Shown piece by piece: positions 3,055 to 27,813 of a stretch of DNA of 37,278 nt (positions are counted from its first letter, which is position 1; each line of letters begins with the position of its first letter). The position numbers were made by a program, and so were the translations under genes. The DNA lies in NCBI GenBank assembly GCA_041667225.1, contig JBAYFK010000001.1, positions 1 through 37,278 on the forward strand. The letters run 5' to 3'. Below the pieces are notes generated by a model. It saw only the letters and a list, made by a program, of their open reading frames with translations. It was not told where the DNA came from and did not search any database. Source of the DNA: Candidatus Omnitrophota bacterium (lineage in GTDB: Bacteria; Omnitrophota; Gorgyraeia; 2-01-FULL-45-10).

Positions 3055-3065
3055 AGAGGTGGAAA

Positions 3066-3335
3066 TTGGGTTTGACAAAAGAGAAGAAAACGAAACTGAT
3101 ATCTGAATTTAAAGCCAATGAGAAGGATACCGGGTCGCCGAGCGTACAGATAGCGCTGCTTACCGAGAGGATCAATTCTCTTTCGGAGCATTTTAAATCG
3201 CATAAGAGCGACCATCATTCCAGGAGAGGTCTTCTGCGTATGGTAAGCATAAGGAGAAGGCTTTTGGAGTATCTGAAGGGCAGCGATCATAAAGGATATC
3301 AGGATATCATTAAAAAATTGGACCTGAGAAAGTAA
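3066..3335 (+). CDS. rpsO: 30S ribosomal protein S15
   Basis: (M)[56 protein letters not shown]... is a canonical S15 sequence of about 89 aa. TTG 3066 has a GAGAGG SD 5 nt upstream. The track start at 2994 adds a non-homologous extension that covers the leader hairpins. Confidence 0.9.
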
Positions 3336-5509: not shown

Positions 5510-5980
5510 TTGAAGAACATACGGATATCTTTTAAGAGAAAAGTTGGCTCGGAAGACCTGCCGCTGCCCAGATACGCTACGAGCGGATCGAGCGGCATGG
5601 ACTTGTGTGCCGATGTAGAAACAGAAGTCGATATCATGCCAGGCGAGATAAAACTTATTTCGACTGGCATCTATTTAAGCATACCTGAAGGCTATGAAGC
5701 CCAGATCCGGCCGCGAAGCGGGTTAGCCTTAAAACACGGGATCAGCCTTGTGAACACCCCCGGCACGATAGATTCCGACTACCGCGGACTTGTAAGCCTG
5801 ATAATGATAAATCATGGAAAAGTTCCTTTTAAGATCAGGCGCGGCGATAGGGTAGCCCAGATGGTCATAAGCGAAGTAGTCAAAGCCGCTATAGATATCA
5901 AGGAAGAACTGGACGGCACCGTCAGGTCTGCAGGCGGGTTCGGCCATAGCGGCGTCAGGGGTGATAAGGGACATGGATAA
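5510..5980 (+). CDS. dut: dUTP diphosphatase (dUTPase)
   Basis: The five dUTPase motifs are recognisable: PRYATSGSSGMDL, RPRSG, GTIDSDYRG, and C-terminal RSAGGFGHSG. The start is TTG. Confidence 0.9.
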   Translation: MKNIRISFKRKVGSEDLPLPRYATSGSSGMDLCADVETEVDIMPGEIKLISTGIYLSIPEGYEAQIRPRSGLALKHGISLVNTPGTIDSDYRGLVSLIMINHGKVPFKIRRGDRVAQMVISEVVKAAIDIKEELDGTVRSAGGFGHSGVRGDKGHG

Positions 5981-11475: not shown

Positions 11476-11617
11476 TAGAAAATATATATTTCTAGGACCC
11501 GCGATTTTCTGTATAAACTCGGGGGAGTGATCGAGGGTCTTGAAGAAAATAGGTTTACACCATCTTAACTGCATCGCAGATATGGCTATTCTATAGGTGT
11601 GGATCGATTTTCAAGGA

Positions 11618-11657
11618 CCAGATTGCCTAGAAAAAAGAAGGCAATCTGGTTTTTTTA
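11618..11657 (+). terminator. rho-independent terminator-like hairpin (possible attenuator) 35 nt upstream of the giant gene ATG
   Basis: A perfect 10-bp stem, CCAGATTGCC (11618-11627) / GGCAATCTGG (11640-11649), encloses a 12-nt A-rich loop. Eight consecutive T (11650-11657) follow immediately. Confidence 0.6.
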
Positions 11658-11692
11658 TTGCCTCTGTGTTAATAAAATTGAAAGAGAGATTA

Positions 11693-14600
11693 ATGCCTGA
11701 AAGAAAATTTTTCGATCGATCAAATCCGCTGATCAAGACCATCTCTTTAATACTTCTCATCGCTTTCATAGCCCAGGATATAGCATGGGCTGATCCTCAA
11801 ATCTTTTTAAATCAAAGATCATCAGGCGACAAGTTGGCAGCGTCCACTTTTCTGAGGTCCGAAAAGGCCGTAAATAAAGTAAGCGCAAAAGCCATAGAGT
11901 ACGCTGTCGAAGAGTATAGCGCTATTCCCCGTGAAAAGCTCGACGTAGCATGCGTAAGAGCGTCTATAAGAAGTTTATTGGATAAGAATAAGGAATGGTT
12001 CGCTGCGCATGTCAGCTATTCAATGATGTCTCTTGATGGTACGCCCATAGGCGACGATGCGCATGACGGCGATATCGCCGAAGTGGTGGTAAAATTCGCT
12101 CCCGGCTGGTCGGTCAGGTATTTCGATCCCGCAACAGCTAGACCTCAAGAAGGATTCTCCGCTCCCGTAGCAATTAATGACAGGCTCCATAAACAGCTAA
12201 TAACCGGCCCCGGCGACTCTCCTAAGGGGCCGTTCAATTTCTCATTCGGAGAAGGTGTGGGCCTTCGTCATATGGAGGTTAATAATATCATCGCCTTCCA
12301 TGACCTGACCATTGCAAAAAAGGGTAAGTACCATGAAACCGAATTCTATGAGCGTAAGCTGGATGCCGACAAGGATCCAACTTACCATGCAAAAATAGAA
12401 AGAGCCGCAGACCTTCTGATGGCGCAAGGCATCGTTCTTTTTGCAAAAGGCATGGCCTGCACGATAGCGGCGGGAATACCTTTAATAATGCTTTTTACGA
12501 CCCCTCTCGTCGCTATATTCGGTATTTCCATGCTCCCCATAACTTATATATTCGGAAAAAAAGCGCATAAATATTTCATCAGCGCGAAAGGGTACTACGA
12601 TCGCTCCCTAAGCATAAGGGGTGATACCACGGTAGTACTTGTTGATATCCCGTCCCATCTCCTCCTGAGCGGAAAAGAACTGGATGGCTCCAGCTTTTAC
12701 CAGTTCACCCACATAGGAAGGGCCAGGCGCGTGATCTATATGCCGAAGAAGGCATTGCGCGATATGGATATAGCCGATCCCTACGACATGCGCCAACTCG
12801 CGACAATATTGAACCACGATCAGGTCGAGCTCGACATGATGCACAGAGATAACAGGATAGCCGCCGCAAAGACATACGCGGATTACGAAAATCTTCTTAC
12901 GGCCTTTCATGACGCCGCAAAACTTGAAGACCCATTCGGCGAAGCGGCGCATATAGAAGAGCGCATAGCGGGCTGGATGGAGATGGACGATTCCGCAGCT
13001 TCGATACTTAAAAGAGAGATCGAAGAAAAGGTCATGGAATTCGAGATGCGCCAAAGCAATATATTGGATTCGGAAGAATCGCTGGTCAGCGGCCGCTTCT
13101 CATATATATATACTACTGCTAGCATGGCGATGCAGATCGGTTATGCTTATGAGGTTCTGGGCGACCAAAGATCTGCCCACGAGTATTACGGGAAAGCCTG
13201 GTCCAATTTTGTCGAGGTCGTTTCATCTGACGTATATATACTGCCTATCTATGCCCAGCTCAATATAGTAAGGATCAATGCCTTTGAAGGCGACTATGCG
13301 GAAGCGGCCGTGGATTTTAAAAGGCTGACCAATTATGAGATAGGAGTTCCGCACCCGTCCGCTAAATATGTCAAAGGTTCAGTGCGCGTCGTCGAGACCC
13401 ATATCGCGGAAAATATTGAACGGTGGCGCGATGAGGTTTCGGCCCTTATGCGCCACCATGCTCAGGCCTCTGGCGATGTCGGCGGGATGGAAAGGGCGGC
13501 AGCGGCTATTGAAGATATTACGGGAGCTGTCAGTAAATACCTTGGAGAGCAGGAGGTTTTCGAGAAGAGGGAGAAGGAGCGGGCGAGCTATGGCGAACTT
13601 GTGGAAGAGCTGAGGCGCGCTATCCTGATCGGTAACAAACTTTGGGCGGCAAATGTACAGGATGCGCTTTCAGAGAGATTCAAAGGTGAATTACCGGAAG
13701 AAGTAGAGCGGGTGATAAGAGAGACGAGATCGCCGACCGCCGAGATGATCCCGGATGCCGATACGCTTGCAAGCTACATAGACGAACTGGAAAAGGCGGA
13801 GAATATACTTATAGATGAAGAGCAATATGAAAAAAAGGTCTTAAGGCCGCTATTCGACCTTTTGTTATCGTGCCTTGAGAGGGATTTTGACGGGACAGAT
13901 GAATTTGCTGCACATTGCCGCACTGCCATTTCAAAGCAGGATGCGTATGAGCTCCGGATGCAGATGAATAATAAGGACGAGGCGCTTCTCGATAAATTCA
14001 ACAAGATCAGGAGAAAAGACGGTACAGAAGATACTTCTATAGAACTTTATGGACTGCTCCTATTCCACCTTACTGCGGATTCGACGCCTTACATACGCCG
14101 TCTTTATAAAGAATTTATGCAGACCCGCCCGGTCGACAAAATAGCATTTGCACGCAAAGGAGTATCTTATCATACGCGTGGAGACGCAATAATCTATTAT
14201 TATCCCAAGAACCTTCTATTCGAAGGCAGGCGCGCCAATGCCAGAGAAGGACATAGATACGGAGAGGCGAGCGCTCTGGAGGACGCTAAATCCTCGGAGA
14301 ATGCCAGGAAGATCGCGCGGGCTGTTGAAATGTGGAAAACGGCCGCCGAGAACAACCGGGATCTTGACGAGAGGATAAGGCATTTCGAGGACATAACTTC
14401 TATCGTCGAGTTAAATATGAAGACGTCCCTTCTTTTTTCGGATCCACAGCAGAATGTGGTCCGTCCGATCCACTCAGGAAGAAGCCGTCACAGGCTGTAC
14501 CTTTCCAAGCATTATCTCGATTCGCTCGATATAAATAATGAGAGAGACATGAAAGAGCTCGCCACATGGCTCAATTATGGACAGGACTTTCTGGATACGC

Positions 14601-17600
14601 ACGATTTGATGGCGGATGGGGGATATGCGATACCGCGTATACAGAAGGCCCTTTCGAATTTAACATACTCATTTTTTGATCACGAGGATACCGGACTTTT
14701 AGAGCCGGGCTATCTCAAAGAACGGCTTGCGGCGTTCATGGAAGAGGATTTTCTCATCAAGTACAGGGAAGTGCTTCTTGCTGCGATAAAGGAAGAGAAG
14801 GAGGCCGAGGTTACTATGCGCACGATAGTCGAACCCGGCAGGGCCGCTCCTAATGAATATAAATTGGCGAGGAACTCTTATGGCCATCTTCTTTACCGGT
14901 ATGAGGGATTAGGACTTCGCTCCAAGGCTGACAAGGCCTATATGCAGATGACGATCGCTACGTCCGTCGTTCAGACGCACGAAGGCGGCATCACTCCGTG
15001 CACGGATCAGATCGAGCTTGTGCTTACGGCACTGCGTTTCGCGAGATGGGATGATTTCACAAAAGAACTGCGCAAGCTTTTAACAGGAAAAGGTTATCCC
15101 AGGCCTATCGAAAAGTCGGAGCTGCCTCTCGTCATATTTATGTTACGAGGCCGTTTCCAGAACGATCTTCGGCATGCGATCCATGCGCAGAAAGAGGCTG
15201 CCGATCCGTATTCCTACCCGATAGTGGAAAAGGTGGAGAAAGAGGCCGATAAACTTTTGAAAGAATTCTCAGAACACCCGTTCAGCGATCTGGGGCCTAA
15301 GGATGTCCAGGATAGCACAGCGACTCTTTCGTTCATAGGTAAGGCGCTGGGTATAAGATATTCTTCGTTCTTCCATGCTCCGGTCATCGAAGAAAGCGCC
15401 AAGGTGGGCATACCCTTCGGGATATATGCCGTACTCGATGCGGTCAAGCATTCGTTCCCATCCCTTAATGCAGCTATCTTTGCAGGTGCTATCGCCGTAT
15501 TCGGTATCGTCTTTATCATTGCTCATCTATTGAATGAAAGGGCGCCTCCGCGATCGGCAGGAGAAGCGTTCCGTATCTTTGCGGCGCCTGCTGCCGCGAC
15601 CATCGCAGGCGGTATTCTTTCCTATCTCTTTTTTACAAACCCATTATATGCAATTCTCTCAAGCATTCTCGCTCATCTTATTATAAATGCGATCGTTTGG
15701 GCGCTACGCCGTTTAAATATCGACATCAAATACTCGACCGTATATTTTCCGGGTTCTCATCGTGTGACATGGACAGAGATAGAGCGTATACGTGAACTTT
15801 CCGCAAAATGGGACCTTAAGGCTAACGGGTTGAAAAATCTTGAAGATGTGCTTAAAGACCCGGGAGCTGAAAATGTGCGGCGCGCCATACTTGACCTTCT
15901 TGAAGGGGGAACGTATAGCGCGCTCAGCCGTTTCCAGATGTACAAAGAGAGGGAACGCGGGTCAAAAGCGGAATTCCTTGGAGAATTGGTACAGGCGGCC
16001 TCGTGCCAGAGACGCATCAGGTCTTCAAAGGTCATCGAGATGGGTCCCATATTGGCAGGAGCTGAGATCGATGCAGTTGTCGAAGTAGATCATAAGAAGT
16101 ATGCCTCGAGAAGACAGACAGGGCTTACCTATGACCTTCCCGATGGGATATATCTCATGGAAGGGAAGGTTGACGAGTTTGGCGATATAGAACAGTTCAT
16201 CAGCTATATTTTCGAAACAAAACTTGATAAGTATCTGCGGGCCGCGCGGGAATTGAAGAAGAAGGGCAAGAAAGTTTCAGGGATCATATTTGCCGTAGGC
16301 GGCGGCATAGCCAGCTTGAATCCCGAGGAGTTCAGAAAGAGGCTGATCGAGATGGGAGAGTCGGATGAAGAGATCCTCGCCGCCGGCTTTGATCCCGAAA
16401 AATTCAAGGTATACACTTATCTTGTCCCGGAAACTATCTACGAGGAAGGGCCCAAGACCGCGCTTACGCCTAAGGATATAGAATATATCGATGCGGTAAT
16501 GAAAAGGCCGGAAGAGGATGGCTCTATACCGCAAGAGACGCTTTTAGAGTGCCGTTCGGTCCTTGAGCGCGCGCTTCTCCTGTTTGGGCTTGAGAGGGTG
16601 AGATCCGTCTATCTATCCAACCATTTCAGAAGGCACAATGTAAGCCTCGTGGCCCGTACATACGATATTAATGAATATGCGAAAGCCGTGCTCGACCTTA
16701 AGAGCGACATAGCCGAGATCGATAAAGATATGACCTTTGTCATGGACGATTCGTTCATAGCCGAAGATGGAACGGCTCCCGTTCTCGACGGGAAGAAGAC
16801 CGACAGGGTAAGGAACCCCAACTATGAAAAAATGGATTTCACTCTCGGGCAGAAGACGTGGGGGAATTTCGAGATGTTCATATCGAAGGACAGGTCGACC
16901 GTATATGTTTCGTCCGTTGAGAGGGGTTCTGCCGAGTACTTTTCTATCAACATGGATATGGCAGCGCCGCATCCGCTTATGTACCATTCGGGTGATCTGC
17001 ATATAGCGCTTGACGCATCTATCCCGGCCGCATCCTTAAACAACGGACATAATATAAATATGGCCAGGATCATAGGCATCCTCAGAGAGGCGATCGGGTT
17101 CAGAGAGGAAGTTGTAAAACATGATAGATCGGACTACTATTGGATAGACAGGCTGGGCGGCCGGGGAAATGAATTGGTGTCATACGATATTCTGGCTGCC
17201 CATAAGATCCCGCATCTTATGGAATTTGTCGGCCCTCATGCGCTCATACCGGATCTCTATGCGCTCAACGAAAAGAATAGACTTGAATTGCTTGCGGAAT
17301 TTGGCAGGCATAGTCCTGCGGTCCTGGGCAAAAAGTTCGCTTACGGTTACTATGCGATAGTTTCGGTCCCGCAAGGACGCAGGCCGACGAACGAGAAGTT
17401 CCCTCCGGCAGAGGAGCTTATTTTAAGCGCCAGCATGCCGGATAAATTTCTGCGCAGCCCAGCGCAATTCCAGAAAAGCGCCTCAGTGATAGCTGAAGAG
17501 TTCCTTGCAAACCTCAGGATTTTAGCTTCCGAAGAGGATATGAGTATGCCTGTACCTCGCTCGATCATGGTCGAGGATTCATACGGGAATATGAAGATCC

Positions 17601-20600
17601 GTTTTGAACTGGATCCCGTCAGGAAGGTGATCATCTCCGCCTCTGCCGTAGAAATGGTCCGGACGATATCTCAGAAAGACTTGAGAACCGTATTCATGGA
17701 ATCGGAAAGCATCATCACGTCCAGGACGGGTATGGTGGATATATCGAAGGTACGGCCCTCCAAACTCATGAGGTATGGATATGCAAAGATCGTAGGATCT
17801 AACGGTAACATTGTCATAGCTCCTGTCGAAGGCATGATCCAGAGGCCGATGCCGAGAAACTGGGCAATGGGGTTACCGTTCACATCGCTCGCCGTATCTT
17901 TAGCGGGTAAGCGCTCTGTTCCTGACAAGAAAAAATCCGGGAAGAAAGATGCGCCGTCGCCGAAACGGGAAGTCGTATTCGCGATCGATCTGCCGGCTTC
18001 TACTGGATTTGATGACGATGTACGCGAGAGCGAAAAGATATATGAATTTCTGGATGGATTTGAGCAGGATCATAAGGGTAAGCTAGGCGGGCTATTGGAA
18101 GATGTTCTTGAGGAGTTGATCTTTAATGTTACAGATCATGGCCGCGGCGGAAAGATGGTCATATATATGGAGAAAGACGCTGACGGTGAGCCGGCAGCTA
18201 TTGAGATCGTGACAACTGATAACGGGCCGGGGCTGCCCGATAGTCCCGATGATCTTGTAAAGAAAAGCTTGTTGGCACATGAAAGATTTGTTAATAGCCC
18301 GGATGACGAGCCGGAGCCTTTAGACGATGGTATTGATTATGCATTAATGAATGCTTACAGGGGGCAAGGTTTTGCCAGGATAGCCCTTGACCCGGATAGT
18401 GTTACTATTGAGTGTAACGGCTTGAAGTATTCAAGGTCTACAAACGATAAGAATGCTTCCTCATGGTTCGGTGAACCGGTAAAGAGCGAAGTTACGACCG
18501 GCGCCCGTTTCACCCTCGGTTTCTCATTACGGAGCGAAGCTACCCATATTCCTTCTATCCCTGTTGACCGCAGGCCGGTAGATTCAGGGCTTCTGGCTTC
18601 GAGCTTTGTCGAATACGACATGGACGTCAAAGAAACGGTCAACCCTGACAATAAACCTATTAAGGCTCTCTATTGCGCCTCCGGCGCCGATCTCTCGAAT
18701 TTTCTTCTATCGACTAACGCAACCGAAGGATACTTTGTTTCTCACTACCGTGGGCGTTTCCGCACCATGAGGGGCAAAGACCTAAGGGAGTGCTTTGAAA
18801 GCGCGTCACCAGAGGATTATATAAAAAAGAATCTGTCTCCATATTATCGGGAAAAGTTCGAAAGGGGTTTTGCAGGCACGGAAACCTTTTATAGCATGCG
18901 TCAAACGATCGCCGCTATGGCTTTTGAACTGAAGTCGATCGGTGTTGACTTGTCGACCGTAAAGATAGATACGCTTAACGGCCGGCCCGTCTTACGGTTC
19001 CGATGGAAGTATTATGGCTGCGACGAGCGCGATTATTCCGTAGTCCTTATAGACGCCGATGCGACAAAACCGGAGGAGTATGCCGCTGATCTTGCCGGTG
19101 TTGCTATGGATGTATATTATCAGCGCGCTGGGAATGAGCTTCCTATGGAGTACAGGAAAGGAGCAAAAAGCTATATCGGTTGGATATACGCCAGGATGAA
19201 ACCGGGTGCTTATGTCGTGACAGACGACAACGCTTTTGACAATGCCCAGCAATGGTACCGCGACCTTGGCGGCTCCTTTCCACTGCCGGCTAAAGAGGTC
19301 GACATGCCCGAGCTGTGGCCTATAGAGTGGGTCATTCTCAGGGCTCTGCGCCCTATGGATATATTTAACCATGAAGCGGCGTTTTACGGCTGGCGCATGA
19401 CTGTCCGCCAGAAGCCGATCGACGCGGAGATGGTAACGGACGATATAGGTAATCTTGTGAAGGTGTCCAAAAGGCCTTTCCTGGCAAGGATCGTAGCATA
19501 TTTGCGGGGTAAGGGTATTTCGGAGCGGTGGATAGCGTCTTTGGGCGGGCTCGAGGAATTGTTCTTCAGCGGAATTGTAATAAGCGCTTTTGCTGCAGCA
19601 GCGCCCCATATCTTTGCAATTTCATTCTCAGCCGCCCTTTATACAGGTTTTGGCATAAGCGCCGTCCTATTTACGCTCTCACACATTAAAGAAGTTTACA
19701 GGATGACAGGAGGTGCTCTTACTACCGCGCCTCCTTCAGCCTCGGATATGATCTTTATAACGGGATTGGGAATGGCCTTCCGCGCGGTATATCTTGCGGG
19801 GCTGGCCCTGCTCCCATTTGGCCCTTACAATATAGCAGTTGCTTTACCTCTCATAATAGTTCTTCATAGCATTTATAATGCGTTCATAGCCCCAAGATCG
19901 GACCTTGTTCTGGGTATGGCATCAGTGAACCCGGATAAGCCATTCAAAGAACTCACCCGCATAAACTCTTCTATTGCAACCGATACAACCGCCCTTATCA
20001 ATCAGTTATCGAAAAGCTTCTCGTCGGCATATCTGATAATGAACCCTTTGCGCAACATCAAAGCCGGCCTTGCCAGATATGGTTATGTTAAGCGGACCTC
20101 TCTGGAATCATGCCGCCTTGGAATAAGACGTATTCTGGCCACATGGCATCTTTCCGAAACTAAAAAGAAGAAGCTCTCGGCCGCTCTTAACAGGATAGAT
20201 AAGATACTGGCCAAGATGGACCGCATGGACGGGATGATAGACGGTATTGAGCTATTACCTCGCGGCGTAAGCGTCTCTTCCGTCGCATCAGGCCTCAACA
20301 TTTGTGTGATAAGACTGAAGAGCATACTCGAAGGGATCAGGGAAGAGGATGTCCATCTCATCGAAAGACTGGAAGGCATAAGCGCCTCTATTCACGAGAT
20401 GGCAGTCGGGCATGAGGAGATAAACTCTGAAAAATTGATCGGCTATGTAAAGGCATTTAAAGCGATATCGACCCACCAAGGGGTAGGAGATAAGAGCCGC
20501 GCCAGGATATCTCGCCTCGCAGATGACATGAGCGCCTTGTTAGCAAGCGCTAATGAACAGGGTGGAGGATCACGATCCCCGGCAGCCGAGCAGATCGAGA

Positions 20601-23600
20601 CATCACTCTTTGATTCGGAAGATATGAGCCTTATTGACAGGATGTGGATAGCTATGCCAGTCCAGGATGGACGTGATTGGAGCGCTGCCGTAGAAGAGCT
20701 GCAATCCAGGTTCAGCAAAGATCATCCGGGAGACCTCCAGGTAATAGAAGAAGGGGCGTCTTATGACATAGATGAGCGCGTATCGGACCGGTTGGTTAAG
20801 TATGTCGAATCCATTGGCGGGAAACATGCCGGTGACGTACATATAATGACGTCTACTATAAGCGCTGCGCTGCAAAATGTGTATCAGCACGGGGATAATT
20901 ACGGAGCTATGATATTAAGGGCCAGGCGCACGGGCCGAAAGATGGAAGTGGAATTTGTAATAATAGACCGCGGACAAGGGTTTATCGACCGCCAAGGTAA
21001 GCATGTGGATATCCACGAAGCCGTTAAATACGGGAAGTCTTTCGGCGCGAACGGCCAAAGCGGTATAGGGCTGACCATTACCGTTGAGGTGGCCGATAGC
21101 ATTTCTATTACGACCGTCGACAGATCTTCCGGGTCATCGGAGGCTTACTACTGGGAGAAGGGGGACGTTCATGAGTCCCGTCTGAAAACTGCGCCTGTTG
21201 AGAGCGGTTCAAAGATAGTCTTTACCAGAGAGGTCGATTTAACTCCGGAGCCCGATGATCCGAAGGGCGAAAACGTTGCAGTAGAGCCGGCCGCTCAAAG
21301 CGTTGACATTGTTAAATGGTATTTTGAAGAATATGAACCTTCTCAAGTTGAAATGGCCGCATCGTTCAACGATGGGACTCTTACGGGGGACCATATAATA
21401 GAATGGGTAGACCGTGTGGTACGTCCACTAAAGCCGGACTTAGATGTTACCGGGATCGTTGAAACGGGCAAACCATTCACGCCGCGTCAGGCAGGGCTCT
21501 TAGGTGAAAAGATCTTGAAAGATGTCCTTATCCCGCACGGTATCATTGCGCATGTGTCGGCCGTTGCTTCAGGTGTAGCTGTCGGATCGATAACTAATAC
21601 GGAGACGATAACAACACCTGCGGGACGTACGATACCTTTATATACGGTGCGTACTCTGAGAGGTGAATTCGGCCAAGGGACAGCTTTTGCCGAATATGTC
21701 ATCGTGCCGGAAGAGATAGCCAAGGAGTCTCATGAAATTGCAGATCATTATGCCAAACTATGGCGTGACCACATGGAAGGGCGCGCTCCTGCCGCTCTTT
21801 TCAGATACCAGAAGCGGTATGCGGAATGGATCTTTATGCATCTTTTCGGTAAGTCCGATGCCGCTGCTGCCGCGCGCCTCGTCCGTGAATGTGACCTTGC
21901 AGAGGAGCTGAGCCATTCTGATATGCAGGCTTTTACGGAGACGGTATTAGAAAGGCCTCTCGACACGGCGGTACCTGAGGATGTAGAGGCGGCAAGCCAC
22001 GCGATACTTAAACCCGCATCTATCGAAGAGCTCGCCTTTGAAGCAGCCCGCGACGGCGAAACTCGTTATATCCTCGCTGAGGCAGTTCTTGAGGTTGAAG
22101 CAAAGCTTAATGCTATAATACGCTCGCCGATGAGCGCCTATAATTTCCTCGAGTTCCTGCACGGAAATGTCGTCGACCTGCATATACCCGGTGATGAGCC
22201 GCCGGAATATAACGTTGCCAGGAATATACTCCTATCCGTTATGAGTAAACACCTTTTCGGCAAGAGCACTACGGACACTCGCGAGTGGAGAGACTATCTT
22301 GACGAGACGTTATGGAATATGGACGAATTTAATGCTGCCCTGAAGAAGGCGGCCGCCGCGGCTTACCGCGAAGAATTCTTGAGTCACGATGAAAGAGTAA
22401 AGAAGGCCGAAGGATATAAAACAAGGCGCCGGCACACGGAACTCTACACTAACATGTATAGGGAGCTCGTAAGGCCGCGTTTTGCGCTGGGCGCGCCAAA
22501 GGTCCTTAACATCTGCTCCGGCGCGGGCGCCAGCGCAATATTGTATGCGACTAACTGCTCCTCATCGGTCATGATCGACAGGCTGTCCTTCGGATATAAC
22601 GCAGGAGTGATGAGCGGCCGGTCTGAGCGGACAGAACGGGAGCGATATTTTAATGATATCGCTCAATATGATTTTCCCCGGACTGACACTCTCACAGGGA
22701 TCGGATCTCTCTGGCTTCCTCTTAAGTGGGAGCTGGCAGAGATGGGTATAGGAGAGGATGCGATCACGGTGGATAATCCTGCATATGGCACGTGGCGCGT
22801 CCGTTTTACGTGGCAGCATCCCGACGATGATCAGCCGCGCGAGAGGACATTGTGGTTCTATCAGGAGGACATTCCCGAATCATCGGGCGTTGCCGATCTT
22901 TCGGCCGGCGTAAGGCTTGACGCTCAAAAGGTGGACATCCTGGATGCCGATATACTCTTCGACAGAGCCGCCGAACACACTTTGCGCGCGACTACCGATA
23001 TGCCGCTCTATATGAAACGCAAAAGCATAGTGATCACCGATAATCCGGTCAGAAAAAATATATTCGATACACAGGATTCTCTCGTTCCCGTAACGCTAGA
23101 TCCGGCCCTTTCGGAACAGTCCAGCCGTTTCGGATATGTAGGGAAAAATACGTATGAAAAACATGACGCGCTTGATGCTATGGCGGTCTACGAAGTCCGG
23201 GGTTCGTCTAACGGGTTTTCCGGAGATAACGTCAATATTTATAGCGCAGACTCGCTTACCGGAGAAGAGAGGGATAGGCTCGCCCGTTTTGTGATACGGG
23301 AAGGGCTCGATATAAGTACTACATATATAGGAGAAGATGAACGCGGTATTGAGCTTGGCCGCGCCTATCTCGACAGGTTGACCAGGAAGAACGAGAGCGG
23401 GGAGAGTGGATATTTTGTAGCTTTTAAAGGAGGGGATCCGGTAGGTATCGTCAGTTATGCGGTTCTTCCCGGATGGCTTGCAGCCGAAAGAGAATACGAG
23501 TCTACCATAGACGATCTGTACGTTACCGGTAGCGTCAGAAATCAGGGGATAGCAGCAGATCTCGTGCGGCAGGCCGAAACGCATTTACGAAAGAAGAACG

Positions 23601-26600
23601 TCAAAAATTACTATGTCGTAGTAGGGCAGGGTGCCCCGTCTCAGGACTTCTGGAAAAAATTTATTCCCCGGGAATATCAGACCGTGGATGACAAAGGTGA
23701 GCTCTTTTCATCGATCGTTCCTTTTGAGAACCCAAGAGAGATAGCTCGGGTGGAGGCATGTATAAAAGCCGTGAAGGCGGGCGCGTTCCAGAACGGCAAC
23801 GTGGTCGACTTAAGAAGGATACCGCCCGATATGGAGGTCATTATCGTTGGGGATCTCCATGCGCGGGTGGATAATCTCGGCAATATCCTTGAGCATGCGG
23901 ATCCCGGGACCGGCAAGAGCGTATATGAAAAGGTCAGGGACGGCGAGGCGGTACTCATACTGCTTGGCGATGTGGTGAACAACGATCCTCCGGATACTGA
24001 AAATATCGCGGCCATTGCGGAGCGCCTCTCTTCGATGGAAGAGTCCGTCGATATGATCAAAAAGGTCATGGACCTGAAGATCTCCCATCCGGATAGCGTC
24101 TACTACGTGCTCGGCAATCATGATGATCCTTTTTCCATGTGCAATAGAGGCGGGATAGATCAGTCGAGGATATACAGGGATACGATCCGGTCGCGTTACG
24201 GCGAGAGATATCTTTATCTCTATAACGATCTTATTCAGGCGAGCCCGGTAATGGTCATAGCAGAAGGTCTTGTAGCCACGCATGCTGCCCCAATAAGAAG
24301 GCTCTCTCTTGAGAATATAATCAATGCCGATAAAGATTCTGATGAGATACATTTCGGGATGTGGGGGCGCCATGAATCCCATTTTGGAGATCTGGTCGAT
24401 ATTTCGGAAGACTCGAGTCCCCTCCGCCAGCTGCTTTATCAGTCGCGCAGGGAGCAGTCGTACGACAGCAGAGATGTTGTTGAATTCCTCGATAGGGTCG
24501 GCCAAAAAGACGGCGTATTCATCGTAGGCCATACACCTGATCTTATACCGGAAGGCGATTTCCACGCCGAGATCGAGGATAGACATCACATTATATATGC
24601 CGCGCGCGATAAGACGGGATACGCTTCGTTCACAGCCGGCAAGCTCGATTTTGTGGAAACGTCCGCCGTTGAAATGCCGCGCGTAGAAAGATCATCGCCA
24701 ACGCCATCGTCCGGTCTTAAGCTTGCCGACAAAGTCCTTTTAGCGCTGCCGATCGAGGAACAGCAGAGAGTGGACGCGGTGGTGCGTTTTGCCGCGCATG
24801 TGATGAGGCTTAGCGGAATAGGAGATGCAGATCTGGAAAAGGAAGCCGCTTTCGACGCCATCCCTGCTTCGACTGTAGCGGCGTTCATGCTGGCCGAGAG
24901 AGATAAAGACGCTAAACTTGACAGTTATGATGAGAGCTGGGAGGCGGACGCGATAATATTTTTAGGTCATAACCATCCGTTATTCAAAGATACTAAAGTG
25001 ACGCCGAAACTGAGCATACGCGTTCTTTTCGAGATGCGTAAGCGCGGTATGCAGGTTTCAGAATATTGTATTTCCATGTGCGATTCCGTAGATAAGCTCG
25101 TATCATTCCTTTTGAACGGCCCGCTCGAAGAGAAAGAGAGGATGGCCCGCGCAACCCTTATGATAGAAGAGCTTGGAATGAAAGATCTCATCCCATGGTC
25201 GGCCGCAGCGCTCGACAGGATATCTCTTTACGCTGAATGGGCCGGTACACCCGACGAAGCGCGCGTTGCGTGCTCTTTCCTGGAGCATTTCACCGGGCAC
25301 CTTTTTGAGTCACGCGCCATGGCAGATGCGTTCATGTTCAATCTGTCCGTGGTGGAGGGTTTCCTTGGCCCAGGCAATATAAATAACAAGGATACGGGGG
25401 TCGTCTATCTTCTCGGCGGGGCAAGCCTGCTGTACGACCAGGCCAGACAGATCGCCTTATCTTTAAAGGTCAGTCCTTCGCGTATACATCCGTTCTCTTT
25501 GAACAGGAAGACGGCTGAAAGCGATGACGAGACGATAAGGGAATACATAAAACAGGAAGGCCTCGACCGCTATAAAAATCTCGTCATAGTCGACACAGGG
25601 TTCCATGGCAGCATGGCGCGCCGTCTTAAAGATGTATTGGGATCGATGCCGAACTCTCCCCGTAACGTACACGCGAGACTTTTGGCGATGAGCTCAGAAC
25701 CGTATGAATACAAGGGTATGGATGTTCTGGGATATAACCATGTTCTTCAGGAGGTAGATCCAAATTGGTCCGAGATCGATAGGAACGCTCTTTTCTTAAT
25801 AACCCATCTCCTCGATAACATATTCCCAAAACGCGAACAGTCGCCCGGCCGTCTCGATACTGCGAACGTTCTCGTGGCCGTCACTCCGGTTACTGTACCT
25901 TCGGAAGTGCCAGGTTTTGCAGCTATAGTGTCCAACGAGATGCGACTCGGTACGGGCAGATTATTATCACGCGGTTTCGAATATCCCGATCCGGGGAATA
26001 GCGTGTGGGAGAGATGGATTCCCTCCGGAAAAGATGAAATGGAAGGCGCTCCAGCGGCGGAAATTCCGGACCTTCTCGACAGTACGGTCAGGGGCAACGC
26101 TTCATACGGTAAATTGAAACAGGAATTGACATCCCGGTTTACGCGTCTCGGCCAGAAGGGCGTTTCTTTAGATAGTGTGGAGGATGTTCTCGATGAAAAT
26201 AGCGTAGAGATCTTCCAGGCGATGTGGGGCCTGAGGAACATCTTTACCGGTTCCAAGTTTTCTGATGAAAGGGCGCAGACGGATATGTGCTATGAGGTGA
26301 GCGTGGCTGTATGCGAAGCTTTTGACGAAGCGGTCCCCGGCCATGAAATCGTCCTCATGAGCGGATATTATGACGATGCCGGAGGCGGGCTCTTTAGAAT
26401 ACCTCATTTCTGGGTAGTGATAGACGGCGATATCGCAATAGACCTTACATACGGACAGTTCGATAGCGAATACGAGGATACCGCTCTCGTTGTCCGGACC
26501 GGAGAGCTCCCGCGGTACAAGCTGGAGCAGGGGAAGGTGGCTCCTTGGAAGAGCGCTCCTAGACCCCAGACATCAGTAGCCGCTACCATTTCAGCCATAC

Positions 26601-27157
26601 ATTATGCGTTGAAGACCGACGCTTCTCATCAGGCCGGGTCGAGGATACTTCTTTCTGCCAGCTTATTTGATGATATCGACCGCTCAAATCTTGAAAGATT
26701 GTTCAATGGCACAAATATAGAGATAGTGGAGCCGGAAGAGCTCAAGCGCAGGACGATGAACGAACATTCTTCCAAAGAAAACCTTGCGGTCGTGCTTACG
26801 CAGGAAGATTTCACGCAGGGTAAGACGTGGAGCGGCGCCGAAGATGATTACAGGGTGAAGTCGAGCGTGCTCATATTGGGAGACAAGCTGACCGGTTCTA
26901 ATTATTTATATCTGGAAGGCGTGATAGAGCTTGCCAGAGCGATGATGCGTTCGGATAGAAATGGTATTAAAGAGGCATACGAGCTCATATCCGGCGCCAT
27001 TCTTAGCGATGAGGCCTTGAGTAAGCTCGGGCCTTCGCCCAACACCATAGCGTTCGCGATCAATGCGATACTCAAGTTCAGGCCCATAGTAGTGCACGAT
27101 ACGGGAGAGTTGGAAAGATTTAAGAGCATGGTAGAGCGTTATCTTATAAACGCATAA
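11693..27157 (+). CDS. giant multidomain polytopic membrane protein (about 5,150 aa) of unknown function, with CPBP-like x2, GHKL ATPase-like x2, GNAT, metallophosphatase and Cys-His-Asp papain/transglutaminase-like signatures
   Basis: A single open frame runs 15.5 kb with no stop. I chose ATG 11693 (MPERKFFDRSNPLIKTISLILLIAFIAQDIAWADP, a signal anchor), because the track start GTG 11597 would translate through the terminator-like hairpin. Domain motifs are detailed in the findings. Product name and function are unknown. Confidence 0.9.
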   Translation: MPERKFFDRSNPLIKTISLILLIAFIAQDIAWADPQIFLNQRSSGDKLAASTFLRSEKAVNKVSAKAIEYAVEEYSAIPREKLDVACVRASIRSLLDKNKEWFAAHVSYSMMSLDGTPIGDDAHDGDIAEVVVKFAPGWSVRYFDPATARPQEGFSAPVAINDRLHKQLITGPGDSPKGPFNFSFGEGVGLRHMEVNNIIAFHDLTIAKKGKYHETEFYERKLDADKDPTYHAKIERAADLLMAQGIVLFAKGMACTIAAGIPLIMLFTTPLVAIFGISMLPITYIFGKKAHKYFISAKGYYDRSLSIRGDTTVVLVDIPSHLLLSGKELDGSSFYQFTHIGRARRVIYMPKKALRDMDIADPYDMRQLATILNHDQVELDMMHRDNRIAAAKTYADYENLLTAFHDAAKLEDPFGEAAHIEERIAGWMEMDDSAASILKREIEEKVMEFEMRQSNILDSEESLVSGRFSYIYTTASMAMQIGYAYEVLGDQRSAHEYYGKAWSNFVEVVSSDVYILPIYAQLNIVRINAFEGDYAEAAVDFKRLTNYEIGVPHPSAKYVKGSVRVVETHIAENIERWRDEVSALMRHHAQASGDVGGMERAAAAIEDITGAVSKYLGEQEVFEKREKERASYGELVEELRRAILIGNKLWAANVQDALSERFKGELPEEVERVIRETRSPTAEMIPDADTLASYIDELEKAENILIDEEQYEKKVLRPLFDLLLSCLERDFDGTDEFAAHCRTAISKQDAYELRMQMNNKDEALLDKFNKIRRKDGTEDTSIELYGLLLFHLTADSTPYIRRLYKEFMQTRPVDKIAFARKGVSYHTRGDAIIYYYPKNLLFEGRRANAREGHRYGEASALEDAKSSENARKIARAVEMWKTAAENNRDLDERIRHFEDITSIVELNMKTSLLFSDPQQNVVRPIHSGRSRHRLYLSKHYLDSLDINNERDMKELATWLNYGQDFLDTHDLMADGGYAIPRIQKALSNLTYSFFDHEDTGLLEPGYLKERLAAFMEEDFLIKYREVLLAAIKEEKEAEVTMRTIVEPGRAAPNEYKLARNSYGHLLYRYEGLGLRSKADKAYMQMTIATSVVQTHEGGITPCTDQIELVLTALRFARWDDFTKELRKLLTGKGYPRPIEKSELPLVIFMLRGRFQNDLRHAIHAQKEAADPYSYPIVEKVEKEADKLLKEFSEHPFSDLGPKDVQDSTATLSFIGKALGIRYSSFFHAPVIEESAKVGIPFGIYAVLDAVKHSFPSLNAAIFAGAIAVFGIVFIIAHLLNERAPPRSAGEAFRIFAAPAAATIAGGILSYLFFTNPLYAILSSILAHLIINAIVWALRRLNIDIKYSTVYFPGSHRVTWTEIERIRELSAKWDLKANGLKNLEDVLKDPGAENVRRAILDLLEGGTYSALSRFQMYKERERGSKAEFLGELVQAASCQRRIRSSKVIEMGPILAGAEIDAVVEVDHKKYASRRQTGLTYDLPDGIYLMEGKVDEFGDIEQFISYIFETKLDKYLRAARELKKKGKKVSGIIFAVGGGIASLNPEEFRKRLIEMGESDEEILAAGFDPEKFKVYTYLVPETIYEEGPKTALTPKDIEYIDAVMKRPEEDGSIPQETLLECRSVLERALLLFGLERVRSVYLSNHFRRHNVSLVARTYDINEYAKAVLDLKSDIAEIDKDMTFVMDDSFIAEDGTAPVLDGKKTDRVRNPNYEKMDFTLGQKTWGNFEMFISKDRSTVYVSSVERGSAEYFSINMDMAAPHPLMYHSGDLHIALDASIPAASLNNGHNINMARIIGILREAIGFREEVVKHDRSDYYWIDRLGGRGNELVSYDILAAHKIPHLMEFVGPHALIPDLYALNEKNRLELLAEFGRHSPAVLGKKFAYGYYAIVSVPQGRRPTNEKFPPAEELILSASMPDKFLRSPAQFQKSASVIAEEFLANLRILASEEDMSMPVPRSIMVEDSYGNMKIRFELDPVRKVIISASAVEMVRTISQKDLRTVFMESESIITSRTGMVDISKVRPSKLMRYGYAKIVGSNGNIVIAPVEGMIQRPMPRNWAMGLPFTSLAVSLAGKRSVPDKKKSGKKDAPSPKREVVFAIDLPASTGFDDDVRESEKIYEFLDGFEQDHKGKLGGLLEDVLEELIFNVTDHGRGGKMVIYMEKDADGEPAAIEIVTTDNGPGLPDSPDDLVKKSLLAHERFVNSPDDEPEPLDDGIDYALMNAYRGQGFARIALDPDSVTIECNGLKYSRSTNDKNASSWFGEPVKSEVTTGARFTLGFSLRSEATHIPSIPVDRRPVDSGLLASSFVEYDMDVKETVNPDNKPIKALYCASGADLSNFLLSTNATEGYFVSHYRGRFRTMRGKDLRECFESASPEDYIKKNLSPYYREKFERGFAGTETFYSMRQTIAAMAFELKSIGVDLSTVKIDTLNGRPVLRFRWKYYGCDERDYSVVLIDADATKPEEYAADLAGVAMDVYYQRAGNELPMEYRKGAKSYIGWIYARMKPGAYVVTDDNAFDNAQQWYRDLGGSFPLPAKEVDMPELWPIEWVILRALRPMDIFNHEAAFYGWRMTVRQKPIDAEMVTDDIGNLVKVSKRPFLARIVAYLRGKGISERWIASLGGLEELFFSGIVISAFAAAAPHIFAISFSAALYTGFGISAVLFTLSHIKEVYRMTGGALTTAPPSASDMIFITGLGMAFRAVYLAGLALLPFGPYNIAVALPLIIVLHSIYNAFIAPRSDLVLGMASVNPDKPFKELTRINSSIATDTTALINQLSKSFSSAYLIMNPLRNIKAGLARYGYVKRTSLESCRLGIRRILATWHLSETKKKKLSAALNRIDKILAKMDRMDGMIDGIELLPRGVSVSSVASGLNICVIRLKSILEGIREEDVHLIERLEGISASIHEMAVGHEEINSEKLIGYVKAFKAISTHQGVGDKSRARISRLADDMSALLASANEQGGGSRSPAAEQIETSLFDSEDMSLIDRMWIAMPVQDGRDWSAAVEELQSRFSKDHPGDLQVIEEGASYDIDERVSDRLVKYVESIGGKHAGDVHIMTSTISAALQNVYQHGDNYGAMILRARRTGRKMEVEFVIIDRGQGFIDRQGKHVDIHEAVKYGKSFGANGQSGIGLTITVEVADSISITTVDRSSGSSEAYYWEKGDVHESRLKTAPVESGSKIVFTREVDLTPEPDDPKGENVAVEPAAQSVDIVKWYFEEYEPSQVEMAASFNDGTLTGDHIIEWVDRVVRPLKPDLDVTGIVETGKPFTPRQAGLLGEKILKDVLIPHGIIAHVSAVASGVAVGSITNTETITTPAGRTIPLYTVRTLRGEFGQGTAFAEYVIVPEEIAKESHEIADHYAKLWRDHMEGRAPAALFRYQKRYAEWIFMHLFGKSDAAAAARLVRECDLAEELSHSDMQAFTETVLERPLDTAVPEDVEAASHAILKPASIEELAFEAARDGETRYILAEAVLEVEAKLNAIIRSPMSAYNFLEFLHGNVVDLHIPGDEPPEYNVARNILLSVMSKHLFGKSTTDTREWRDYLDETLWNMDEFNAALKKAAAAAYREEFLSHDERVKKAEGYKTRRRHTELYTNMYRELVRPRFALGAPKVLNICSGAGASAILYATNCSSSVMIDRLSFGYNAGVMSGRSERTERERYFNDIAQYDFPRTDTLTGIGSLWLPLKWELAEMGIGEDAITVDNPAYGTWRVRFTWQHPDDDQPRERTLWFYQEDIPESSGVADLSAGVRLDAQKVDILDADILFDRAAEHTLRATTDMPLYMKRKSIVITDNPVRKNIFDTQDSLVPVTLDPALSEQSSRFGYVGKNTYEKHDALDAMAVYEVRGSSNGFSGDNVNIYSADSLTGEERDRLARFVIREGLDISTTYIGEDERGIELGRAYLDRLTRKNESGESGYFVAFKGGDPVGIVSYAVLPGWLAAEREYESTIDDLYVTGSVRNQGIAADLVRQAETHLRKKNVKNYYVVVGQGAPSQDFWKKFIPREYQTVDDKGELFSSIVPFENPREIARVEACIKAVKAGAFQNGNVVDLRRIPPDMEVIIVGDLHARVDNLGNILEHADPGTGKSVYEKVRDGEAVLILLGDVVNNDPPDTENIAAIAERLSSMEESVDMIKKVMDLKISHPDSVYYVLGNHDDPFSMCNRGGIDQSRIYRDTIRSRYGERYLYLYNDLIQASPVMVIAEGLVATHAAPIRRLSLENIINADKDSDEIHFGMWGRHESHFGDLVDISEDSSPLRQLLYQSRREQSYDSRDVVEFLDRVGQKDGVFIVGHTPDLIPEGDFHAEIEDRHHIIYAARDKTGYASFTAGKLDFVETSAVEMPRVERSSPTPSSGLKLADKVLLALPIEEQQRVDAVVRFAAHVMRLSGIGDADLEKEAAFDAIPASTVAAFMLAERDKDAKLDSYDESWEADAIIFLGHNHPLFKDTKVTPKLSIRVLFEMRKRGMQVSEYCISMCDSVDKLVSFLLNGPLEEKERMARATLMIEELGMKDLIPWSAAALDRISLYAEWAGTPDEARVACSFLEHFTGHLFESRAMADAFMFNLSVVEGFLGPGNINNKDTGVVYLLGGASLLYDQARQIALSLKVSPSRIHPFSLNRKTAESDDETIREYIKQEGLDRYKNLVIVDTGFHGSMARRLKDVLGSMPNSPRNVHARLLAMSSEPYEYKGMDVLGYNHVLQEVDPNWSEIDRNALFLITHLLDNIFPKREQSPGRLDTANVLVAVTPVTVPSEVPGFAAIVSNEMRLGTGRLLSRGFEYPDPGNSVWERWIPSGKDEMEGAPAAEIPDLLDSTVRGNASYGKLKQELTSRFTRLGQKGVSLDSVEDVLDENSVEIFQAMWGLRNIFTGSKFSDERAQTDMCYEVSVAVCEAFDEAVPGHEIVLMSGYYDDAGGGLFRIPHFWVVIDGDIAIDLTYGQFDSEYEDTALVVRTGELPRYKLEQGKVAPWKSAPRPQTSVAATISAIHYALKTDASHQAGSRILLSASLFDDIDRSNLERLFNGTNIEIVEPEELKRRTMNEHSSKENLAVVLTQEDFTQGKTWSGAEDDYRVKSSVLILGDKLTGSNYLYLEGVIELARAMMRSDRNGIKEAYELISGAILSDEALSKLGPSPNTIAFAINAILKFRPIVVHDTGELERFKSMVERYLINA

Positions 27158-27175
27158 AATTTTGTAGATGAATTT

Positions 27176-27248
27176 AAAAGCCCGGGTAAATGGGGCGCAG
27201 GAAAGCTTTCCCCCCGAGTTAGCGATCCTTGCCTCACCCCGGGCTTTT
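27176..27248. terminator. 11-bp perfect inverted repeat between the convergent giant gene and thpR (possible bidirectional terminator or structured element)
   Basis: The arms are AAAAGCCCGGG (27176-27186) and CCCGGGCTTTT (27238-27248), separated by 51 nt. The spacer contains the palindrome GGAAAGCTTTCC (27199-27210). The right arm overlaps the thpR stop codon. The spacer is unusually long for a simple intrinsic terminator. Confidence 0.3.
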
Positions 27249-27813
27249 ATTGTCCAAGCCTCGTTTCGTGTATCTTGGTATAAATAGACCCCTTGGGAGT
27301 GAGAGTGGACCGGAAGAGTATTACGGAAGATATAAGCTGGGGTTTCAAGTCCAACATGGCGGGATCGAGCGACAATACTTTTTCTTTTAGGGCGTCTTTG
27401 TTCTTCGCATCTTTTACGCGCCCTATAGTCATATGAGGGCTGAACGCCCTTTCCTCTTTCTGAAATCCTATCTCTGACATCTTTTCATCGATCGTTCCAG
27501 CCAGTAATTTCGATTCTTCCGCGCCCTTATCGAGACCTGCCCAGACGACGCGCGGATGTTCTATCCTCGGGAATGCGCCTATCTCTTTTACTGAGATATC
27601 GAAAGGGTGCGTTGCGCTGCCTATAGCGTCGAGCGCAGATGTGATGCGCTTAACTTTATCCTCATCCGCTTCGCCCAGGAACTTTAAAGTCAGGTGTATA
27701 TTATCCGTTTCCACCCATTTCACATCCGCGCCCGAATATTTCAGGTGGGATTGCACCATGGACAATCCTTCTTTGATCTCGTCCGATAGTTCTATCGCGA
27801 TGAATAGCCGCAT
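27247..27813 (-). CDS. thpR: RNA 2',3'-cyclic phosphodiesterase (2H phosphoesterase, LigT/ThpR family)
   Basis: Both HxTx motifs of the 2H superfamily are present: NIHLTLKFLG and SPHMTIGRVK. The length of 188 aa is typical. Confidence 0.85.
   Translation of the reverse strand: MRLFIAIELSDEIKEGLSMVQSHLKYSGADVKWVETDNIHLTLKFLGEADEDKVKRITSALDAIGSATHPFDISVKEIGAFPRIEHPRVVWAGLDKGAEESKLLAGTIDEKMSEIGFQKEERAFSPHMTIGRVKDAKNKDALKEKVLSLDPAMLDLKPQLISSVILFRSTLTPKGSIYTKIHETRLGQ

Follow-up and report, generated by a model that had tools for sequence, protein, structure and literature searches.

A giant gene between housekeeping genes

The subject of this report is a giant gene on the forward strand of the window, by which we mean the whole 37,278-nucleotide stretch of DNA that was analyzed (contig JBAYFK010000001.1, from a Candidatus Omnitrophota bacterium). 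A stop-free frame runs from 11597 to 27157 and comprises 5,186 codons when counted from its GTG; with the stop frequency taken as 3/64, the chance of such a run is about 1e-108. The coding sequence most likely occupies 11693-27157, i.e., 5,154 amino acids (aa) plus the stop codon from the ATG at 11693, which is preceded by a Shine-Dalgarno-like sequence (Table 1) and whose methionine aligns with the called start of an orthologue, P0001. On its upstream side the gene is accompanied by a MiaB-like radical SAM gene, pgsA (PF01066) and pgpA (PF04608), and on its downstream side it meets the convergent genes thpR (PF02834) and cinA (PF02464), which are followed by recA. The perfect inverted repeat between the giant gene and thpR likely functions as a bidirectional terminator, and a scan of the 5' intergenic region found neither promoter nor terminator on the forward strand. 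No tRNA was detected in the window, no Rfam family was matched, TRF found no tandem-repeat arrays, no direct repeats bracket the giant gene, and there is no break in GC composition between it and its flanks.

P0001, the closest orthologue, is a 4,816-aa open reading frame (ORF) in an independent metagenome-assembled genome (MAG; GCA_041643025.1), where it has the same neighbours on both sides. It aligns with the window protein in four collinear blocks at ~70% identity. The ratio of nonsynonymous to synonymous substitution rates (dN/dS) between the two genes was 0.06-0.18 in 17 of the 18 scorable 250-codon bins, parts without any Pfam match included, and 0.36 in the remaining bin, which adjoins an indel; dS is near saturation, so these ratios are rough. 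The codon usage of the giant gene was correlated with that of the flanking housekeeping genes (relative synonymous codon usage, r = 0.88) to the same degree as the flanks with each other. Altogether, our results indicate that the giant ORF is one real gene, which selection maintains in an Omnitrophota bacterium. An earlier interpretation made from the letters alone (the sequence-only reading) had proposed a single frame of 5,186 or 5,154 codons, the flanking pairs pgsA-pgpA and convergent cinA-thpR, a downstream inverted repeat, and a lack of mobile-element hallmarks, short tandem repeats and nonribosomal peptide synthetase or polyketide synthase (NRPS/PKS) motifs; the ORF scan, the comparison with P0001, codon usage, the annotation of the neighbours and the empty repeat, tRNA, integrase and Pfam scans bore out all of these.

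A chromosomal slot with constant ends and exchangeable cargo

The best matches of the AlaS protein encoded in the window were to Omnitrophota MAGs (61-74% identity) that share the synteny of the flanks, and the other flank proteins also matched Omnitrophota best, identities across AlaS and these proteins reaching 72-74%, in agreement with the earlier pointer to this phylum. We surveyed the region upstream of alaS in 80 genomes, together with 12 metagenome contigs. It was found that the giant gene is the local member of a lineage-specific family occupying position X in the order pgsA-pgpA / X / thpR-cinA-recA-recX-alaS. This slot is empty, with pgpA directly abutting thpR/cinA, in L042, L045, L048, L050, L053, L055, L058 and L016, which are distant Omnitrophota (AlaS ~47% identical) plus two closer ones, L058 and L016. 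In the closer clade, the slot is filled by one large gene on the forward strand. Complete slot genes encode ~1,170 aa (L009), ~1,300 aa (L084), ~3,280 aa (L083), ~4,010 aa (P0013, in the same pgpA/thpR slot as the window gene), 4,816 aa (P0001), 5,154 aa (window) and 6,042 aa (P0002), and eight others were still open at the end of the fetched DNA after 1,700-3,600 codons.

The proteins of this family share a constant chassis, i.e., an N-terminal leader, a head of ~140 aa and a terminal tail of ~200 aa, of which the head and tail are present in most but not all members. The leader, found in every complete slot-family member, has a start rich in lysine and arginine (K/R), ~12-14 hydrophobic residues and the motif F-[IL]-x-Q-D-[IV]-[AS]-W-A-x-P-[DQ]. 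Of the 37 collected proteins that start with methionine and look complete, 19 carried this motif, and in ~1.2 Mb of fetched loci it was confined to the N-termini of slot genes. The head could be aligned in L083 (32% identity), P0013, P0039 and L009, and partially in L084, where the alignment covers only the first ~58 residues. The tail occurs in all 21 tail-positive slot genes and also in P0013, P0025 and P0046, and all 12 metagenome matches to it adjoin thpR/cinA. P0002 has the leader and no head; it also gave no tail match, and the ORF downstream of it, where a tail might be encoded, is cut off by the end of the contig. Tail-bearing proteins end in L-[IVM]-[AN]-A (27143-27154 in the window), which reads LINA in the window protein, LVAA in P0001 and LIAA in most others. 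This ending presumably resembles the ssrA-type 'LAA' that is read by ClpX or by tail-specific proteases. A sequence search of the PDB with the tail gave no significant match.

Very long ORFs bearing the leader (…AQDVVWANPE…) were also observed directly downstream of P0002 (L002 28244-33679; >1,800 aa, running off the contig) and of P0046 (L097 5938-10614), and giants with this leader can thus stand in tandem arrays. Open-ended forward-strand ORFs of >1,400 to >2,000 aa lie upstream of thpR/recA in L008 (1-4332), L019 (1-6285) and L020 (3-5579); their tails were missed by tblastn, yet ...KA or ...QA stands at their ends as well. The tail profile may understate how broad the slot family is. A word-indexed protein search returned four matches for the first 5,000 aa, one for the tail profile and none for the head profile, but this search missed even the 70%-identical P0001, and its counts understate the family.

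Between head and tail, the cargo is exchanged module by module, so that the proteins range from ~1.2 to >6 thousand aa (kaa). The window protein carries two CPBP-like modules, two GHKL-like modules, GNAT, a metallophosphatase, a Cys-His-Asp module, two copies of a module that we call R, and the modules M1 and M2. L083 has two HATPase_c domains, UDPGP, a glucosamine-6-P isomerase-like domain and cytidylate kinase; L084 has a methyltransferase and an arginase-like domain; L088 has a methyltransferase and GNAT; P0013 has sigma-70 region 4 (aa 2890-2943, L095) and GNAT; and P0002 has HEAT repeats, glycosyltransferases, methyltransferases, 5-FTHF cyclo-ligase and the N domain of PRPP synthetase. 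Even between the window and P0001, the housekeeping proteins of which are 77-97% identical, cargo has been swapped: aa 2071-2598 of the window protein (the first GHKL-like module and the first copy of module R) are replaced in P0001 by a GNAT-like segment, a 363-aa segment is specific to the window (Table 1), and a P0001-specific insert of 357 aa (aa 2937-3293) with the HExxH zincin-like motif HELSH has no counterpart in the window. According to a BLAST map, large proteins elsewhere in the set contain nearly every module of the window protein, combined differently. Transcription-factor domains were also seen in giants, namely sigma-70 regions 2 and 4 with HATPase_c in P0004 and three HTH_3 domains in P0003; such domains are odd for proteins with an export-type leader (P0013 being a slot orthologue).

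Two explanations of a different kind bear on the reality and origin of the gene. An assembly chimera, a fusion of genes by frameshift or a decaying pseudogene could be suspected because the source is a metagenome, in which chimeras are possible, and because aa 2071-2598 and 4418-4780 are missing from the closest orthologue. However, the collinear ORF in the same slot of an independent MAG, dN/dS well below 1 in every scored bin, codon usage and GC matching the flanks and the negligible chance of so long a stop-free frame all speak against it, and the window-only residues 2248-2574 have homologues in other giants. Collinearity, low dN/dS and native codon usage in our judgement rule out that the gene is of recent foreign origin or was created by assembly or frameshift errors; the artefact is largely refuted, and we consider it extremely improbable. 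It is also very improbable that the gene represents a recently acquired mobile island, a defence system or a polymorphic toxin locus. The slot is empty in distant Omnitrophota, CPBP/Abi domains are known in immunity systems, and mobile-element flanks were reported at some giant loci (Nielsen & Lui 2026, 10.64898/2026.06.07.730766), but we found no integrase, tRNA or flanking direct repeat at this locus, PADLOC defence-system models gave no match, composition is native, and the same slot, head and tail are occupied across many species, which indicates vertical inheritance. This explanation was rejected.

Modules of the window protein

The domain map (Table 1) bore out the claimed mosaic of unrelated enzyme modules combined with membrane modules. 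Five distinct Pfam families were found in the window protein, each in at most two copies, and about half of the protein is without a family assignment. Signature motifs of the modules shared with P0001 are kept there; the first GHKL-like module and the first copy of module R are not comparable, because P0001 lacks that segment.

Table 1. Positions of the features of the giant gene and its product in the window.
Feature	Residues (aa)	Position	Strand	Remarks
Purine-rich Shine-Dalgarno-like sequence GAAAGAGAGA		11680..11689	+	Direct reading; ends 3 nt 5' of ATG 11693
Leader	1-33	11693..11791	+	K/R-rich n-region, 12-residue hydrophobic core, QDIAWA then D-P-Q
Head domain (~140 aa)	34-170	11792..12202	+	Conserved N-terminally in most slot orthologues
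Module M1	171-640	12203..13612	+	Alpha/beta core, then TPR-like helical repeat
Hydrophobic helical hairpin	241-291	12413..12565	+	Inserted between M1 core halves; hydropathy, AlphaFold2
Module M2	673-1210	13709..15322	+	Holds divergent copy of M1 part B (aa 812-1150)
CPBP/Rce1-like module 1	1226-1338	15368..15706	+	Motifs IEESAK, IIAHLL, AHLIINA
Pfam-dark conserved region	1339-2070	15707..17902	+	dN/dS 0.14-0.16
GHKL ATPase-like module 1	2100-2290	17990..18562	+	In cargo segment missing from P0001
Module R copy 1	2291-2575	18563..19417	+	Motifs SGADxSNF, DxYYQRA, TDD
CPBP-like module 2	2619-2733	19547..19891	+	Motifs LEELFF, LSHIKE, LHSIYNA
GHKL ATPase-like module 2 (RsbW/SpoIIAB-like)	3030-3185	20780..21247	+	PF13581 below gathering threshold
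Module R copy 2	3575-3850	22415..23242	+	Paralogue of copy 1
GNAT acetyltransferase	3894-3989	23372..23659	+	PF00583; motif A RNQGIA
Calcineurin-like metallophosphoesterase	4047-4281	23831..24535	+	Motifs GDLH, GDVVNN, GNHD, H, GH
Window-specific cargo insertion (363 aa)	4418-4780	24944..26032	+	Missing from 70%-identical P0001
Cys-His-Asp module	4824-4944	26162..26524	+	Putative triad C4866, H4905, D4917
Tail domain (~200 aa)	4947-5154	26531..27154	+	Always ends exactly at C-terminus
Perfect 12-nt inverted repeat, 51-nt spacer		27175-27186 / 27238-27249		Between convergent giant gene and thpR

Two of the enzyme assignments were confirmed by profiles well above the Pfam gathering thresholds. 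PF00583 matched aa 3900-3989 (E = 4e-11; 43.6 bits vs a threshold of 20.7), which together with the RNQGIA motif supports the claimed GNAT acetyltransferase, and PF00149 matched with E = 1.7e-8 (35.6 bits vs 21.5), in line with the claimed calcineurin-like metallophosphatase. All five metal-binding motifs of the latter are present and four of them are identical in P0001, motif II being two residues off (GDVVNN vs GDVIHN).

The remaining assignments of the sequence-only reading stood in part. For the two CPBP modules, PF02517 reached 23.1 bits when both copies were summed (threshold, 22.4; span of copy 1, aa 1226-1334) and 18.6-18.7 bits on each copy singly, so that there is one call just above gathering while copy 2 (aa 2619-2705, E = 2e-3) falls below it; the EE, H and HxxxN motifs are present in both copies and kept in P0001. 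For the two GHKL modules, the N, G1 (DxGxG) and G2 boxes were read directly, in this order, in each, but the scores of HATPase_c (PF02518; aa 2135-2201, E = 1e-3) and HATPase_c_2 (PF13581; aa 3059-3141, E = 1.5e-4) were 20.0 and 22.2 bits, below the respective thresholds of 26.4 and 27.4. The second of these modules is 40% identical to P0027, and its profile gave a weak match to the Hsp90 N-domain (E = 0.05). The pair described as Rossmann-like proved to be paralogous (internal E = 0.016; shared homologues at 1e-30), and module R is also present in P0025 and P0036, but the Rossmann or methyltransferase fold was not supported: the best Pfam E value was 0.11, in one of five members, and the PDB profile search was empty. 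The putative triad of the Cys-His-Asp module, claimed as papain- or transglutaminase-like, is conserved in three homologues (window, P0001 and L088), but the Pfam scan of the window protein gave no match to PF01841 (transglutaminase-like), and the best family was YunG (PF24585, E = 0.013). An AlphaFold2 model of aa 4781-5154, which covers this module and the tail, showed a helix followed by strands in the module at a predicted local distance difference test score (pLDDT) of only 53; Foldseek returned no match, a result that is meaningless at this pLDDT. Thus, of the Pfam families that the sequence-only reading expected, PF00583 and PF00149 were recovered, PF02517 was recovered narrowly, PF13581 remained below gathering and PF01841 was not matched.

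Pfam scans found no NRPS/PKS (A, KS, PCP or ACP), RTX or adhesin-repeat domains, and with no tandem repeats either, an NRPS/PKS or a repeat adhesin was rejected. PDB sequence searches with both protein halves, M1, the tail, module R and each GHKL-like module gave no significant match, and an NCBIfam scan gave no meaningful one. Within the Pfam-dark region, aa 1716-2021 recur in P0037. An EID...x27...EGK pattern, of PD-(D/E)xK-like appearance (nt 16058-16171, aa 1456-1493), was also noticed there by eye; it is conserved in P0001 and is without profile support.

Module M1 is rare. When aa 152-635 served as the query for an exhaustive HMMER search, 1.84 billion representative proteins yielded 45 matches to this module of ~400 aa, and most of the matching proteins are 1,100-5,900 aa long and carry M1 at variable internal positions. 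The AlphaFold2 model, built from a 16-sequence alignment, has a pLDDT of 79.9 and a predicted template modelling score of 0.79, and in it a small core of beta-sheet and helices leads into a TPR-like repeat. H193, E220, K234, Q337, H340, H375-D376, E379, H406 and D413 are invariant or nearly so, and we take the H...HD...H...D pattern to be reminiscent of HD-type metal sites. Searches of the PDB, BFVD (Foldseek), PDB profiles and Pfam with M1 returned only TPR/SNAP-like helical repeats, with no Foldseek match at E <= 1e-3, and a scan of genome contigs with the M1 alignment found no relative. The hydrophobic hairpin is confined to the window protein, P0001 and P0002 among the 16 aligned copies. 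M1 and M2 form an internal repeat (E = 1e-10), and M2 is 41-43% identical to P0044, P0046 and P0039.

Elsewhere in the window, dut abuts ftsK (5510-8177), and tblastn of the L001 BacA protein against the whole window found no match; bacA (undecaprenyl-diphosphatase, PF02673) lies between these two genes in L001 (2995-6400) and L002 (3190-6558).

Known giants, membrane side and possible roles

The sequence-only reading did not recognize the architecture as a described one. This was not borne out, since multi-enzyme Omnitrophota giants bearing transmembrane (TM) segments or signal peptides are described in three papers, and with its Omnitrophota flanks the window protein is therefore of a known kind, i.e., a multi-enzyme, membrane-associated Omnitrophota giant that at 5 kaa is modest for the phylum. 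Nielsen & Lui (10.64898/2026.06.07.730766) compiled a catalogue of 916 Omnitrophota proteins with lengths of 10 kaa or more and defined a 'multi-enzyme' class; their Pfam 'Module 1' comprises methyltransferase, HATPase_c, GNAT, HAD and HD, TM helices or a signal peptide were found in 94%, and function was left open. The window protein resembles their class 1 in its phylum, in its many Pfam families of which none dominates, in its HATPase_c-like and GNAT modules, in the lack of nucleotide tandem repeats, and in its signal peptide and/or TM helices, which in the window are called by a hydropathy heuristic. It differs in its length, which lies under the 10-kaa catalogue threshold (an operational rather than biological limit), and in its neighbours, which are housekeeping genes and not type II secretion system (T2SS), pilus, glycoside hydrolase or transposase genes; the T2SS/pilus/glycoside hydrolase neighbourhood is a recurrent, not strictly defining, feature of that class. 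Their text does not mention a slot fixed by synteny, the conservation of a leader, a head and a tail, or CPBP modules, as described here.

West-Roberts et al. (2023, 10.1101/2023.11.21.568195) reported giants of Omnitrophota in which numerous TM regions and peptidase domains are combined with long stretches lacking annotation, and proposed self-cleavage and a role in prey attack. These archaeovorin/dockerin giants come from the same phylum as the window protein, and both have numerous TM regions, GNAT or HATPase_c-like content, long stretches that are dark to Pfam, and peptidase or peptidase-like domains, the last of which prompt the self-cleavage hypothesis for both. In contrast, the window protein is 6-17 times shorter, has no secretion-system neighbourhood, and showed no SecA DEAD-like, C39, S8, dockerin, TSP3 or carbohydrate-binding domains in Pfam scans at E up to 10. 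Burroughs & Aravind (2025, PMC12419801) described gigantic Omnitrophota proteins with histidine-kinase relays, papain-like peptidases, methylases and TM segments and interpreted them as predator effectors. Histidine-kinase-type signalling, a papain-like peptidase, a methylase and TM segments on one chain likewise recall the window protein, but no lipocone domain was detected in it, and that paper describes neither the locus nor the chassis. In the searchable texts on Omnitrophota giant proteins, a term search for the slot, leader motif, tail and CPBP modules came back empty, which is not proof of novelty; a description of the slot, the shared leader, head and tail, and the rare module M1 was not found in these texts.

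Partner switching of the RsbW/SpoIIAB type offers a further comparison. The window protein has GHKL boxes and a phosphoprotein-phosphatase-type module on one chain, and its relatives have sigma-70 domains, but a STAS/anti-anti-sigma partner was not detected, the Pfam scores do not reach gathering, the phosphatase is calcineurin-like and not PP2C, and everything is fused in a giant chain.

A hydropathy scan of the window protein identified the leader, the hairpin at aa 241-291 and a four-helix bundle in each of the two CPBP modules as its hydrophobic segments. The leader has four K/R residues in its n-region, an h-region of 12 residues, a six-residue c-region, alanine at -3 and -1 and an acidic residue at +1. 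Read with the established (-3,-1) and positive-inside rules, the Sec signal-peptide anatomy of the leader predicts export. In the AlphaFold2 model the halves of M1 that flank the hairpin pack together as one domain, which implies an even number of membrane spans in the hairpin. With even span counts in the CPBP bundles as well, the soluble modules would all lie on the same face as the head. L009, L084, L083 and P0046 have no hydrophobic segment beyond the N-terminal leader, so the polytopic character is itself cargo; as a family trait it was not borne out, since orthologues of 1.2-3.3 kaa have the N-terminal hydrophobic leader only.

Our preferred reading, which we hold with even confidence for and against, is that the giant is a Sec-targeted, membrane-tethered string of protein-modifying enzymes at the envelope or host interface, in which head and tail form the constant chassis for its targeting or assembly and recombination varies the cargo. 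The leader would take the polypeptide to the Sec machinery and be cut by signal peptidase after AWA, and the two-TM hairpin and the two four-TM CPBP bundles would anchor the chain in the membrane. The soluble modules, all on the face of the head, would act as a beads-on-a-string array of independently folding enzymes with kinase-like, phosphatase, acetyltransferase and peptidase activities, operating at the envelope of an episymbiotic or predatory cell or at its interface with host or prey. Targeting or assembly would be the task of head and tail, and recombination would diversify the cargo. The role of 'effector or signalling megaprotein' that had been suggested is compatible with these data. 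Several observations weigh against the preferred reading. The topology rests on a hydropathy heuristic, and the K/R residues beside the internal TM bundles are concentrated on the soluble-module side. The family's cargo is of a kind typical of the cytoplasm and requires cofactors (enzymes that depend on ATP, acetyl-CoA and SAM) and also includes UDPGP, cytidylate kinase, sigma-70 region 4, HTH_3 and beta-CASP; together with the K/R bias, this argues for the cytoplasmic face and contradicts export. Furthermore, none of the GHKL, second CPBP and Cys-His-Asp assignments reaches its curated threshold, both CPBP copies have another residue in place of the motif 1 arginine (K in copy 1 and S in copy 2), and the flanks lack the T2SS, pilus and glycoside hydrolase genes that the literature ties to effector giants.

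It is conceivable, although we think it rather doubtful, that the hydrophobic N-terminal helix only tethers or docks the protein and that the modules face the cell's own cytoplasm as a regulatory and metabolic scaffold, in which a partner-switching-like kinase/phosphatase pair and an acetyltransferase act on proteins of the same cell. The positive-inside bias seen at the hairpin and at the two CPBP bundles would fit such a hub, as would the sigma-70 region 4, HTH_3, nucleotide and sugar-nucleotide enzymes and beta-CASP RNase-type domain among the family cargo, the housekeeping rather than secretion genes in the flanks, and the reading of 46% of giants as TM-only with cytoplasmic domains (Nielsen & Lui, 10.64898/2026.06.07.730766). 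However, the leader is canonical and cleavable, the 12 residues of its h-region do not suffice for a stable TM helix, its c-region is kept throughout the family, and there is no extra TM segment between leader and head to flip the topology. With either topology, and without excluding export or a hub, the chain might also be a polyprotein precursor that its own peptidase modules cut into separate enzymes, as a substitute for an operon in stoichiometric co-delivery. We regard this as unlikely: no recurring cleavage-site motif was seen at the module junctions examined, and most orthologues with the same chassis are without a Pfam-detectable peptidase module, even though the window protein has three peptidase-like modules (two CPBP and one Cys-His-Asp) with conserved putative catalytic residues, the CPBP EE motifs start the first helix of each bundle on the soluble-module side, P0001 has its zincin-like insert, self-cleavage was proposed for the Omnitrophota giants of West-Roberts et al., and modules behave as autonomous, exchangeable units.

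We also tentatively suggest that leader, head and tail may together mark a pathway dedicated to targeting or assembling an 'effector chassis' with swappable cargo in a single clade of Omnitrophota, that the pgpA/thpR slot may present a natural series of growth by module accretion, and that M1 may represent a novel enzyme fold whose metal site has the pattern H...HD...H...D; we would put this combination below an even chance. If the leader and tail mark no dedicated pathway, the window protein would be one more mid-sized member of a catalogued class, whereas a dedicated pathway would explain how such giants are sorted. The leader and separate modules (GNAT, the phosphatase, GHKL and M1) are open to individual testing. 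The orthologous slot is graded, from empty through 1.2, 1.3, 3.3, 4.0, 4.8 and 5.2 to >6 kaa, and with its largely constant ends and exchangeable cargo, module gain and loss can be dated on the species tree. Giant proteins are a hallmark of Omnitrophota, and this locus provides a compact and tractable example in which to study how they grow and are targeted.

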